Notes: a model not told the origin generated them from the letters alone. Positions 4,787 through 64,000 are shown, counted from the stretch's first letter. The stretch is DNA of 64,000 bases from a virus (IMGVR_UViG_3300043446_004488:12457-76456), one strand, 5' to 3'. Numbers and translations: made by a program.

Positions 4787-4871
4787 TAGGAGTAGGGAGG
4801 GTCGAACTCCCACGGGATTAACTCCCAACGGATTTTAAGTCCGGTGCGTCTACCTATTCCGCCATACTCCC
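4787..4871 (-). tRNA. trnL: tRNA-Leu(UAA)
   Basis: GGGAGTA/TACTCCT acceptor stem, anticodon loop CTTAAAA, long variable arm, GTTCGA T-loop; no encoded CCA. Confidence 0.95.
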
Positions 4872-20791: not shown

Positions 20792-21552
20792 TAAAATCCT
20801 GCTGCCATTTTATTTACAATATAAGATTTGACAAGTCCTGAACGAACAATATCTTCAACACCAAATTCAACACACTCAAACTCTGGCATTCTCTGAATGA
20901 TTTTCATAAAATCAAGAATACCATTTCTTTCATTAGACTTAGTAAGGTCTGTTTGAGTAGCATCACCACAGAACATAATCTTAGAGTTGTCACCAACTCT
21001 TGTAATTATACTATCAAGTTCATGGAAATTCAAGTTCTGGCATTCATCCACAATAATAATAGAGTTGTCTAAAGTTGTACCTCTGATAAAAGATGTACTC
21101 CAAAACTTAATTGTTTCTTGTGTCTTCAGATTTCCATAGAGCATTTCAAAATCTGAATCACTAGGAAGTTCAAACATATACTTTACCATATTCTTATATG
21201 GAATCTGATAAAGTGATGACTTGTCTTCATGGTCTCCAGGAAGAAATCCAATCTCTCTTGTGGCAACAAGTGACCTGACAATTACAATCTTATCATAAGG
21301 AGTTAGTTCATCAAGAACATCCTTGAGTGCCAGATACAAAGCACAGAATGTTTTTCCTGTACCAGCACAACCATAAACAAAAAGGTGCTTATTCAAATCA
21401 TAAGCATCAAAAAGAACTGTTTGATTTTTAGTTAATGGTTGAATATCAACTAAACTTTCTGAACTAATTGGTTTCCTTTTTTTTCTATTTCTTGCTGTAG
21501 TACCAATTCCAATAGGAGAATCTCCTGAGTTTCTTCTTCTGTTTCTTGCCAT
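20791..21552 (-). CDS. phoH: PhoH family ATPase
   Basis: GCAGTGKT, IGFLPG, RGTTL, DECQN, GDATQTD. Confidence 0.95.
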   Translation of the reverse strand: MARNRRRNSGDSPIGIGTTARNRKKRKPISSESLVDIQPLTKNQTVLFDAYDLNKHLFVYGCAGTGKTFCALYLALKDVLDELTPYDKIVIVRSLVATREIGFLPGDHEDKSSLYQIPYKNMVKYMFELPSDSDFEMLYGNLKTQETIKFWSTSFIRGTTLDNSIIIVDECQNLNFHELDSIITRVGDNSKIMFCGDATQTDLTKSNERNGILDFMKIIQRMPEFECVEFGVEDIVRSGLVKSYIVNKMAAGF

Positions 21553-21818: not shown

Positions 21819-22454
21819 TTAGACCCATTCAAGAGCTTCTGAGACTGAAGGGAACTGCTCTACAAACACTTTCTTACATTCCAAAGCAATGTCCATATGC
21901 TCTTTTTGAGTTCCATTAGCAGACCTAAGATTAATATAATGAATCCAACTTCTACAAGAACCTGTCATATAAATTCTTGTTGGAGTTGCTAAAGGAAGAA
22001 CAAATCTTGCACACTCTTTTGCTACACCTGCTTCCAACATTCTTTTATAAAGATTATTTGCTTGTGTAAAATGTTCTGCAATTTCTGTTTGAAACTTAAG
22101 TTTTACATAATCTCCCAAATCATCTGTAGAATTTTGACGATTTTTTGTATCTTGTTTACGTAAGTCTGGGATAGGAATTTTCTCAGTCAGCAAGCTAGTA
22201 TCAGCATATCTTTGAGAAAACTCTTGAAATGTAAAAGATCTGTGCCTGAGAATCTGAGCAGCAATTCCTCTTGTAGTTTCAATTTCAAGACTCATAGAAG
22301 ACTGTTCAAACACAGACCAATGGTTGTGCTTAATGCAATAACGAAGAAGTCCTGCATAGTTTTCATTATCCTGGTTAGAAGGATTAGAAACCCTGGCAAT
22401 ATATGCCATAGTCCTTTCTGCATCTGGAGTAACGCTAATAAGTCTGACAGTCAT
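21819..22454 (-). CDS. thyX: Flavin-dependent thymidylate synthase
   Basis: RHRSFTFQEFSQRY ThyX motif. Confidence 0.95.
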   Translation of the reverse strand: MTVRLISVTPDAERTMAYIARVSNPSNQDNENYAGLLRYCIKHNHWSVFEQSSMSLEIETTRGIAAQILRHRSFTFQEFSQRYADTSLLTEKIPIPDLRKQDTKNRQNSTDDLGDYVKLKFQTEIAEHFTQANNLYKRMLEAGVAKECARFVLPLATPTRIYMTGSCRSWIHYINLRSANGTQKEHMDIALECKKVFVEQFPSVSEALEWV

Positions 22455-22770: not shown

Positions 22771-22801
22771 TTAATTTATTATTATCCTCCAAATTTTACA
22801 C

Positions 22802-22829
22802 AAAAAAAGAGGGGAAGTCAATTCCCCTC
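22802..22829 (-). terminator. Intrinsic terminator with a nested sigma70 -35 element
   Basis: GAGGGGAA-TTGAC-TTCCCCTC + T7; TTGACT-N17-TAAAAT spans 22821-22793. Confidence 0.75.
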
Positions 22830-22834
22830 CTTAA

Positions 22835-22939
22835 TTATACAACTTGATATTTGGCTTTTGCCATATTCACTTGGGCATTGTGAAGTTTAGATTCTTTCTT
22901 TGCTTTATTTTTTAAATATTGAATAAAAGTAATTTTCAT
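22835..22939 (-). CDS. Riboswitch-controlled small basic protein (34 aa; DUF4278/glutamine synthetase inactivating factor-like context)
   Basis: MKITFIQYLKNKAKKESKLHNAQVNMAKAKYQVV with AAGGAG RBS, right after the riboswitch. Confidence 0.7.
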   Translation of the reverse strand: MKITFIQYLKNKAKKESKLHNAQVNMAKAKYQVV

Positions 22940-22969
22940 AGGTCTGCTCCTTTACTTAAGTGTAATGGT

Positions 22970-23024
22970 GCGTTCCTTCGGATTTCCTACTTCCGTTTGC
23001 TATTTGCAGATAGCAAATGAACGT
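22970..23024 (-). ncRNA. Glutamine riboswitch (glnA RNA motif)
   Basis: CGTTCA-[TTTGCTAT hairpin]-CGGAAGTAGG-AAAT-CCGAAGGAACGC matches the glnA motif core. Confidence 0.85.
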
Positions 23025-23047
23025 GTTTTATGTATACAAGTAATTTT

Positions 23048-23061
23048 GTATCTTTTGATAC
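23048..23061. promoter_or_regulatory. NtcA-type binding site
   Basis: GTA-N8-TAC within the palindrome TTGTATC-TTTT-GATACAA, 23 bp upstream of the riboswitch. Confidence 0.65.
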
Positions 23062-23065
23062 AATT

Positions 23066-23263
23066 TTATTCAATCTCCCAACACCTTTCAAATTTTCCCC
23101 TCAACTCATTGAGCTTCATTTCTTCAGAGTATGTTAAAAGGTGTTGGTTTATTTCTTGCTCTTGCTCAGTAAATTCCAATCTATACTTATGTTTAATAAT
23201 AAAGAGTTTTTCCATATCATCCAAGAATGTTGTTGGTTGATCCAAAAACTCTTCGTAGGTCAT
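23066..23263 (-). CDS. Hypothetical protein
   Basis: 65-aa ORF coupled to upstream gene. Confidence 0.6.
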   Translation of the reverse strand: MTYEEFLDQPTTFLDDMEKLFIIKHKYRLEFTEQEQEINQHLLTYSEEMKLNELRGKFERCWEIE

Positions 23264-23613: not shown

Positions 23614-23943
23614 TTATCTTTCTATGTAACTCAGAGTATGACTGGTTGCATAAAGTTGTTGTATGATTATATCACATCCAATTTTTGGATTACAATCTCC
23701 ACAAGTATAAACATCTACTGCTGCCTTTCCTTCCTCTGGCCAAGTATGAATTGAAATGTGACTTTCTGACAGTAAGCAAAGCACTGTGACCCCTTGAGGT
23801 TCAAACTTTTTTGAGATGGTCTGAACCACAGTTGCACCACTTGCTGCTGCTGCATTTTCTAACAAATCTATAAGGCAAAGTTCATCATCAAGAATGACAA
23901 ATGAACATCCATATAGATTTAACAAATAATGCTTTCCCATCAC
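23614..23943 (-). CDS. speD: S-adenosylmethionine decarboxylase family proenzyme
   Basis: FEPQGVT...LSESHISIHTWPE...DVYTCG. Confidence 0.9.
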   Translation of the reverse strand: MMGKHYLLNLYGCSFVILDDELCLIDLLENAAAASGATVVQTISKKFEPQGVTVLCLLSESHISIHTWPEEGKAAVDVYTCGDCNPKIGCDIIIQQLYATSHTLSYIER

Positions 23944-34098: not shown

Positions 34099-34198
34099 GT
34101 TCTGAGGGACGAACTTTACGGTATTATTTCCACACTACCCTCTAGTGTGGATATGAGAGACGTGTTTTACCCTCCCATAGGTCTCGGTTAACGGGAGC
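34099..34198 (-). ncRNA. PhotoRC-II-like RNA in the psbA leader
   Basis: CCGAGACC...CGTCTCTCATATCC-[CACACTA hairpin, GAGGG loop]...CCCTC; two potential pseudoknot pairings; position matches the known cyanophage psbA 5' motif. Confidence 0.75.
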
Positions 34199-34204
34199 AC
34201 AATT

Positions 34205-34273
34205 GTTAAGAAGTTGTAACAGTTCTTAACTTGTTGATGTATTTATCATAACAGTGTTAGGAAATCCTGTCAA
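34205..34273 (-). promoter_or_regulatory. psbA composite promoter and operator-like palindrome
   Basis: TTGACA-N17-TATGAT overlapping ATAAATA (late), then GTTAAGAA-N10-TTCTTAAC. Confidence 0.75.
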
Positions 34274-63746: not shown

Positions 63747-63755
63747 CTATGTAAC

Positions 63756-63947
63756 TCAGGCTCGCCACCAATTCTTTAACTGGAAATTGGAAACCAGGCG
63801 GGAGTGTTACCTCCATCCGCACCACCAATTTTTGATAGAAATTGGAAACTCATAGAGGGTCATATGACTCCACCAGGATTTTTAAAGTCTCTCCATGACT
63901 ACGAGGGGGTTTCCCGACCAGGGTGCTTTTTGAGTCATCCCAAGACT
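63756..63947 (-). ncRNA. manA/wcaG-like cyanophage structured RNA
   Basis: ~190 nt non-coding, GC-richer, four stem modules each followed by UGGY(C/G); between a tRNA and sugar-metabolism genes, the described context of these motifs. Confidence 0.65.
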
Positions 63948-63948
63948 A

Positions 63949-64000
63949 TAGGGACACTGGGAGTTGAACCCAGACTAACCCGTTATAAGCAGGCCGCTCT
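63949..64000 (-). tRNA. trnI: tRNA-Ile(UAU), 5' part outside the window
   Basis: Anticodon arm GCCTG-CTTATAA-CGGGT, T arm CTGGG-TTCAACT-CCCAG, 3' acceptor strand TGTCCCT-A. Confidence 0.85.

Follow-up and report, generated by a model that had tools for sequence, protein, structure and literature searches.

A putative nitrogen-status cassette in a freshwater cyanomyovirus: an NtcA-type box and a type-1 glutamine riboswitch before a short basic peptide

Known glutamine-responsive leaders and the layout of the phage locus

A two-layer design, in which an NtcA box and a glutamine riboswitch precede the gene for a tiny protein, has been described for the gifB leader of Synechocystis and for the IF17-like genes of Prochlorococcus (PMC6212724); in gifB the combination of NtcA repression with a glutamine ON switch is documented, and in the Prochlorococcus genes it has been proposed (PMC6212724). 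Within the gifB leader, C68 forms a ligand-dependent long-range pair, and Klahn et al. 2018 (PMC6212724) propose that the positions next to it mask the ribosome site. The genes of the picocyanobacterial 'Downstream peptides' (RF01704; yfr6 ORFs; 'IF17-like') lie immediately 3' of a glutamine riboswitch of type 2, and an NtcA site has been proposed there also (Klahn et al. 2018). YRG is the sole shared motif described for these peptides (Weinberg et al. 2010, PMC2864571), which were called IF17-like from DUF4278 (Klahn et al. 2018, PMC6212724). That cyanophages carry glutamine riboswitches is already known: Rfam glnA matches have been reported from cyanophages (S-CREM1, PMC9964418), and NC_006882.1, in Weinberg's alignment, holds a Downstream-peptide RNA and a 17-aa YRG ORF beside a phage capsid gene. 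The reports on S-CREM1 and NC_006882.1 give the RNA only, with no NtcA box, helix payload or terminator-bounded cassette.

The locus described here lies in a stretch of 64,000 nucleotides, which was analysed whole and which we call the window. It shares with the gifB leader of Synechocystis sp. PCC 6803 the same RF01739 aptamer, an upstream GTA-N8-TAC, a small protein gene, and an aptamer 3' tail that can pair with the ribosome-binding region; by analogy, it may also share the gifB logic of expression only at high nitrogen and glutamine. Unlike gifB, whose payload is IF17, it encodes a peptide without DUF4278, IF7-like domain or conserved arginines, belongs to a virus, and closes with a terminator of its own. 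With the Downstream-peptide genes it has in common a helix motif and the placement of a tiny gene immediately 3' of a glutamine riboswitch, but its sensor is of type 1, and its ORF ends after the helix without the YRG/LTYRG that is the literature's signature of the Downstream peptides. The same contrast separates it from NC_006882.1, where the RNA is of type 2 and the ORF of the YRG type rather than a helix ORF.

The window comes from a 76,456-base IMG/VR virus record with an estimated completeness of 37%, and the public runs listed with the stretch are all freshwater metagenomes, with no RNA sequencing run among them. The nearest deposited genomes are S-SKS1 and S-SRM01, both T4-like cyanomyoviruses, and tblastn and blastn searches of deposited phage genomes gave S-SRM01 as the sole match. 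The carrier of the cassette is a freshwater T4-like cyanomyovirus. A reading made from the sequence alone (the sequence-only reading) had listed at this locus a GTA-N8-TAC palindrome, a ribosome-binding site, a small basic Lys-rich ORF of 34 codons and a terminator belonging to it, and all four were found (Table 1); the glnA-type riboswitch that it had put at 22970-23024 was recovered in an Rfam scan with slightly wider boundaries. Rfam also identified two further structured RNAs and two tRNAs elsewhere in the window.

Table 1. Features of the cassette, its neighbours and other RNAs of the window, with positions counted from the first nucleotide of the window
Feature	Position	Strand	Description or basis
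NtcA-type box GTA-N8-TAC, GTATCAAAAGATAC	23061..23048		followed by invariant AAA; motif match and comparison
AT-rich spacer with likely -10	23024..23047	minus	TATACA 23036-23031; core TAnnTA 23034-23029
Type-1 glutamine riboswitch aptamer (glnA RNA, RF01739)	22967-23025	minus	Rfam cmscan
Expression platform	22940..22977	minus	predicted folds
Shine-Dalgarno AAGGAG	22952-22947	minus	7 nt before ATG 22939; GGAG at 22950-22947
34-aa Lys-rich ORF	22939..22835	minus	ATG at 22939; stop 22837-22835 included
Intrinsic terminator	22802..22832	minus	GC-rich 11-bp stem 22832-22806, 5-nt loop, T-run
Sigma-70-like promoter of next gene	22793..22821	minus	TTGACT in terminator loop, 17 nt, TAAAAT; 10/12 matches
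65-aa ORF upstream of box	23066-23263	minus	stop at 23066
AdoMet decarboxylase	23617-23943	minus	neighbouring gene
ThyX	21822-22454	minus	neighbouring gene
PhoH	20794-21552	minus	neighbouring gene
PhotoRC-II RNA	34116-34208	minus	Rfam, 77 bits
wcaG RNA	63754-63853	minus	Rfam, 95 bits
85-nt tRNA, long variable arm	4787-4871	minus	Rfam
tRNA truncated by window end	63949-64000	minus	Rfam

The aptamer, the candidate operator and the expression platform

The aptamer matched RF01739 with 52.6 bits (gathering threshold 35; E 1e-8) over model positions 1-53 of 53, and in the cmscan alignment the conserved strands CGUUCA, ACGGAAGUAGG and CCGAAGGAACGCA of the P1/P2/P3 core were all matched. Among relatives the P2 hairpin is either long or short, and the aptamer core is invariant. 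Neither the window nor the 76-kb record contained a tandem, nested, second or type-2 aptamer. We concluded from its sequence that the riboswitch is genuine, glutamine being its predicted ligand. Searching IMG/VR for the aptamer core yielded at least 120 contigs. Among viral contigs (L003-L122), type-1 riboswitches precede at least 6-7 unrelated families of 28-65-aa basic peptides, with N-termini such as MDRFTFWCF..., MTLWTRYCR..., MNRFDHLHK...NGxGTSGY, MNYRDFE...DPRLQKI and MTKYQ...NPFYP; some of these ORFs follow tandem aptamers, and none of the unrelated-peptide loci has an NtcA box 24-25 nt before P1. The same aptamer core also occurs 128-143 nt before 427-438-aa multi-pass membrane proteins (L129, L168, L173, L181, L188, L206, L211, L228) in genomes of SAR116, Pelagibacteraceae and other alphaproteobacteria, all marine heterotrophs, where the membrane proteins are probably ammonium transporters.

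The GTA-N8-TAC motif occurs 18 times in the window, compared with 8.2 +/- 2.9 in shuffled sequences, roughly a twofold excess; 15 of them are within ORFs of at least 45 codons, the only intergenic ones being those at 1057, 23048 and 43526. With most sites inside ORFs the count proves little, and we took it as weak support for the box. An alignment of 14-15 related virus loci was more informative. All six columns of the GTA and TAC half-sites are invariant, whereas only one of the eight N8 columns is (mean identity 0.70), and the 14 nt 5' of the box contain no invariant column at all (mean identity 0.66), since three different genes are found before the cassette: speD, a '...DDWRQRD' ORF, or others. 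The distance from box to P1 is 24-25 nt in 15 of 16 loci, the exception being L008, which has an insertion. Every one of the 16 leaders that have the window's expression platform, the window included, has an upstream GTA-N8-TAC; outside this group, the IMG/VR contigs among the matches listed mostly lack the box or have it at scattered distances. An operator for a dimeric NtcA should have constant half-sites and a free centre; the conservation pattern of the box, as read from the alignment, is that of such an operator and excludes a chance palindrome.

The spacer between box and P1 is invariant at 7 of 24 columns in the related-locus alignment, A23033, T23030 and A23029 among them, and the candidate -10 that it contains, TATACA, is weak. 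We infer that transcription starts just 5' of the aptamer, a position that puts the box centre at about -30. Where an NtcA site lies relative to the start decides its mode: a centre at about -41.5, which leaves some 22 nt from TAC to the -10, activates, and other positions repress; at the NtcA-repressed promoters of the Synechocystis regulon the sites accumulate near -30 (PMC5714215). Counting 22 nt past TAC leads to CACGTT, which lies within the aptamer, so that a start activated from the box would cut or destroy P1. A sigma-70-like promoter 5' of the box (23091-23063) would place the box over +1; it is not conserved, and the corresponding upstream sequence in relatives is coding. Every placement of the predicted start that spares the aptamer leaves the box in a position expected for repression. 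In cyanobacterial type-1 leaders with a box, gifB-type leaders included, the box is found 9-20 nt before P1 in 50 of 55 (mode 10-12), and the gifB-type host boxes overlap the -10/start region, whereas the box of the window stands 24 nt before P1. Given this difference, the phage appears to have kept the host logic and shifted the operator by roughly one helical turn. The sequence-only reading had proposed that the full two-layer logic of the host was copied; the design is indeed that of the gifB leader, but the spacing, 24-25 nt in the phages as against 9-20 nt in the hosts, is not.

Downstream of the aptamer core, both MFE and centroid folds pair the 3' tail of the aptamer, GCACCAUUAC (22971-22962), with GUAAAGGAGC (22955-22946), and 22977-22975 pair with 22942-22940 as an outer AGG/CCU helix. 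The same hairpin appears in the MFE structure of all 16 related leaders, where it abuts or overlaps the Shine-Dalgarno sequence (SD), and it is of greater stability than with shuffled linkers (mean z -2.3). The pairing probability of the SD is no greater than in shuffled linkers at about half of the loci, and at three the SD is mostly open; the folding models only partly support specific selection for SD occlusion. RNAalifold, applied to the leader alignment, recovered only P1, which is invariant, so that there was no covariation to score. The partner of the C immediately 3' of GAACG (22970) is the final G of GGAG (22947), and alignment to the Rfam model would equate this C with the gifB C68 of Klahn et al. 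and with C60 of the crystal structure. By analogy with gifB, and with partial support from the sequence, an ON switch acting by release of the SD region would be the most likely mechanism.

The peptide and its relatives in phages and picocyanobacteria

The 34-aa peptide contains eight lysines and no arginine, has a net charge of about +7, lacks a YRG motif, and matched no Pfam, NCBIfam or ESM Atlas family. AlphaFold2, supplied with an alignment of 37 sequences, predicted a single helix over residues 2-32 with a pLDDT of 88.5. When a profile of 15 phage peptides (A1) was searched against 1.84 billion representatives, it detected 62 clusters at E<=1e-3, nearly all of 27-40 aa, and in this helix family only one Lys and one Ala (K15 and A22) are conserved. 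The helix ORFs of the window and of L008 differ by 6 synonymous and 9 non-synonymous codon changes, so that purifying selection is shown by the breadth of the family and not by this pair. Fusions of the helix to YRG segments are found in both orders (L015, P0057, P0043 and P0022), and P0022 consists of two helix-YRG repeats.

In related phages the helix ORF encodes 27-33 aa and usually follows a gene for a 44-58-aa YRG peptide, which it overlaps by ATGA or GTGA; these YRG peptides score 14-23 bits against a DUF4278 cut-off of 25.3, and S-SRM01 too has a pair of YRG and helix ORFs. A second IMG/VR scan, anchored on the box and P1, gave at least 20 cassettes with an intact aptamer core. Among the matches listed, all 20 such cassettes have the helix ORF and 13 of the 20 have a YRG ORF, and the helix ORF stands first or alone in seven, the window among them. 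The cassette of the window has the minimal, YRG-less layout of one plain aptamer, the helix ORF and a terminator. Terminator-like sites number five in the 1 kb around the cassette, compared with 0.4 in shuffled sequences, and every related locus has an equivalent hairpin after the final ORF of its cassette. The terminator doubles as the promoter of the next gene, with TTGAC(T/A) in the loop as the -35, the T-run as spacer and TAAAAT/TATAAT 17 nt further on, an arrangement also seen in L004, L007, L015, L026, L085 and others.

Several of the related loci are more elaborate. The aptamer of S-SRM01 (L001, MW015081) is apparently split between 2136-2187 and 2338-2356: a sub-threshold RF01739 match of 28.9 bits precedes a 55-aa ORF, after which come the 3' strand GACGGAAGGAACGC, the usual platform, and the YRG and helix ORFs. 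The 65-aa ORF upstream of the box in the window was considered as a counterpart of the gene nested in the S-SRM01 aptamer and was rejected, the two being unrelated on comparison. In L013 (6213-6293), L026 (3982-4065) and L036 (7217-7300) a third overlapping ORF of 27-28 aa, purely hydrophobic and transmembrane-like, follows the helix ORF, and L008 and L013 also have a 50-aa ORF with LTYRG and a conserved ...HLxEWFEK... segment.

Searched against 401 cyanobacterial genomes, the phage-only profile A1 gave matches in four, in each case to the N-terminal end of an ORF whose start lies some 15 nt behind a Glutamine-II riboswitch (RF01704, 38-54 bits). Because the host matches of the phage-only profile lie only behind RF01704, we identified the peptide of the window, on sequence grounds, as the N-terminal helix found in Downstream peptides of picocyanobacteria. 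When the four host sequences were added to A1, the augmented profile, which finds their close relatives by construction, matched 54 of 151 genomes of the host family (best E 1.8e-11) over a GC range of 0.26 to 0.72. Among the best 30 of these host loci, 25 have an RF01704 match above gathering at the corresponding place and in the same orientation, and all 30 ORFs start MNxLxxI(K/R)...RLxxAQL (consensus MNxLxxI(K/R)xxxxKxxRLxxAQL); 10 of them run on into two YRG motifs and 20 have no YRG. In the literature searched we found no description of a helix module of Downstream peptides. The idea that the host family has type-2 aptamers only was rejected, RF01739 being above cut-off in 12 of 121 genomes, where the type-1 aptamers precede other small proteins. 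Two GC-rich picocyanobacterial genomes (L248 and L249) contain a host cassette of like design, with an NtcA-like box and a type-1 aptamer of 44-47 bits that follows GTAGCAACTGCTAC by 9 nt; the ORF behind this aptamer encodes a basic, Arg-rich peptide of 39 aa (MSIITVHYLQRHREE...). A similarity between this peptide and that of the window was not detectable, and kinship of the two was rejected.

The sequence-only reading had drawn its parallel to gifB and IF17, and at the level of the peptide this parallel failed. In an alignment of 26 cyanobacterial IF17/IF7 homologs, drawn from loci behind type-1 riboswitches, the IF7-like C-terminal domain has three invariant arginines with spacings of 13 and 7, which we take to be the published critical arginines. 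All three are absent from the peptide of the window. A comparison of the helix-family and IF7/IF17 profiles by hhalign (A4 against A5) returned a probability of 0.13%, and with the phage-only A1 HMM no ORF behind any of 127 type-1 riboswitches in genomes reached significance (best E 0.059). Neither YRG nor DUF4278, the YRG-repeat domain that IF17 has at its N-terminus, is present: the window ORF matched no Pfam family, and there was no PF14105 match in the 76-kb record. Membership of the peptide in the family of GS-inactivating factors was rejected on the arginines, the hhalign result and DUF4278; on contextual grounds, a function in the same pathway as IF7/IF17 is possible.

Proposed working, alternative readings and meaning

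We think it probable, though far from certain, that the locus is a self-contained, host-derived nitrogen-status cassette that is repressed by NtcA, switched on by glutamine and devoted to a peptide of nitrogen-replete conditions. The NtcA operator would occupy the -35 region of the promoter at which transcription starts, and in a nitrogen-starved host, where 2-oxoglutarate is high, active NtcA would block transcription of the cassette. Without glutamine, the 3' tail of the aptamer, together with the C that follows P1, would pair around the Shine-Dalgarno sequence; with glutamine bound, the aptamer would capture this tail and the ribosome site would open, an ON switch analogous to that of gifB, which predicts protection of the ACGGAAGUAGG and GAAGGAACGC strands and opening of 22955-22946 upon addition of glutamine. 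The peptide would be made only in nitrogen-replete, glutamine-rich hosts, and would most probably act on the nitrogen-assimilation machinery of the host, mimicking the host's own glutamine-induced peptides.

Other readings of the control region and of the ORF have to be weighed against this one. The box might be an activator site or no NtcA site at all, with the cassette induced by nitrogen stress or driven by read-through; there is no terminator between the upstream 65-aa ORF and the box, and Sullivan and co-workers are said to have proposed, in 2010, NtcA-driven promoters for cyanophage genes. Yet the -41.5 geometry of an activator would put the start inside the aptamer and cut P1, induction at low nitrogen would contradict a switch that glutamine turns on, and the invariant half-sites around a free N8 are the prediction for a site of an NtcA dimer, so that we consider this reading quite improbable. 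We give equally little credence to a role of the ORF in cis, as leader or spacer, and to a generic cationic amphipathic peptide directed at membranes or nucleic acids, in either case with no specific role in nitrogen metabolism. Its very short length, its richness in lysine, its charge of about +7, the lack of Pfam, NCBIfam or Atlas matches and the mere two conserved positions would all suit such a peptide. A terminator directly after the ORF, and a promoter of its own for the next gene, leave nothing in cis for the ORF to regulate; at least 62 clusters, from phages and from hosts over a GC range of 0.26 to 0.72, agree in length, start and helix register; the family stands behind glutamine riboswitches in phages and hosts alike; and the helix has been fused repeatedly to YRG modules.

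A more specific reading makes the peptide a functional GS inactivating factor, an analogue of IF7/IF17 that shuts down host GS when glutamine is plentiful. It draws on the two-layer control, the same as that of gifB (PMC6212724), on the small, basic and helical character of the peptide, which is like that of IF7, on the coupling or fusion of the helix with DUF4278-like YRG peptides in relatives, and on the fact that picocyanobacteria lack full-length IF7/IF17 but have many riboswitch-controlled peptides (PMC6212724). The peptide, however, has no arginine where 26 IF17/IF7 homologs have three invariant ones, and neither hhalign (0.13%) nor the A1 search behind 127 type-1 riboswitches revealed a relationship; we regard this reading as unlikely. 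Returning to the nitrogen-status cassette, the kept control logic in the absence of YRG, together with the helix ORF in all 20 of the cassettes sampled among the matches listed, suggests that the helix works as a module by itself. Only tentatively, and with no great expectation of being right, do we propose that the basic helix, and not YRG/DUF4278, is the constant active payload of glutamine-riboswitch cassettes both in picocyanobacteria and in their phages, and represents a new class of small regulator binding GS, PII/PipX or another nitrogen-control protein.

Relative to the literature searched, what is new is the conserved cassette of NtcA box and type-1 riboswitch in a clade of cyanomyoviruses, the recognition of its constant payload as the helix part of the Downstream peptides of hosts, and the minimal YRG-less layout of the window. 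No riboswitches for a proteinogenic amide amino acid are known to us other than those for glutamine, and we know of no function ever given to the payload of those in picocyanobacteria. Should the peptide prove inert or non-specific, the cassette would still be a well-defined small case of the capture of a regulatory module by a virus. By analogy with the host systems, this may be a case from nature in which a phage times a host-mimicking peptide to the nitrogen state of its host, and a peptide of 34 residues can be synthesised chemically as a probe for its target. If the proposal of a new regulator holds, this minimal phage peptide would be the cleanest handle on the post-translational tuning of nitrogen assimilation in cyanobacteria without IF7/IF17 (Prochlorococcus and marine and freshwater Synechococcus), and would also show how phages exploit the control of nitrogen assimilation in their hosts.
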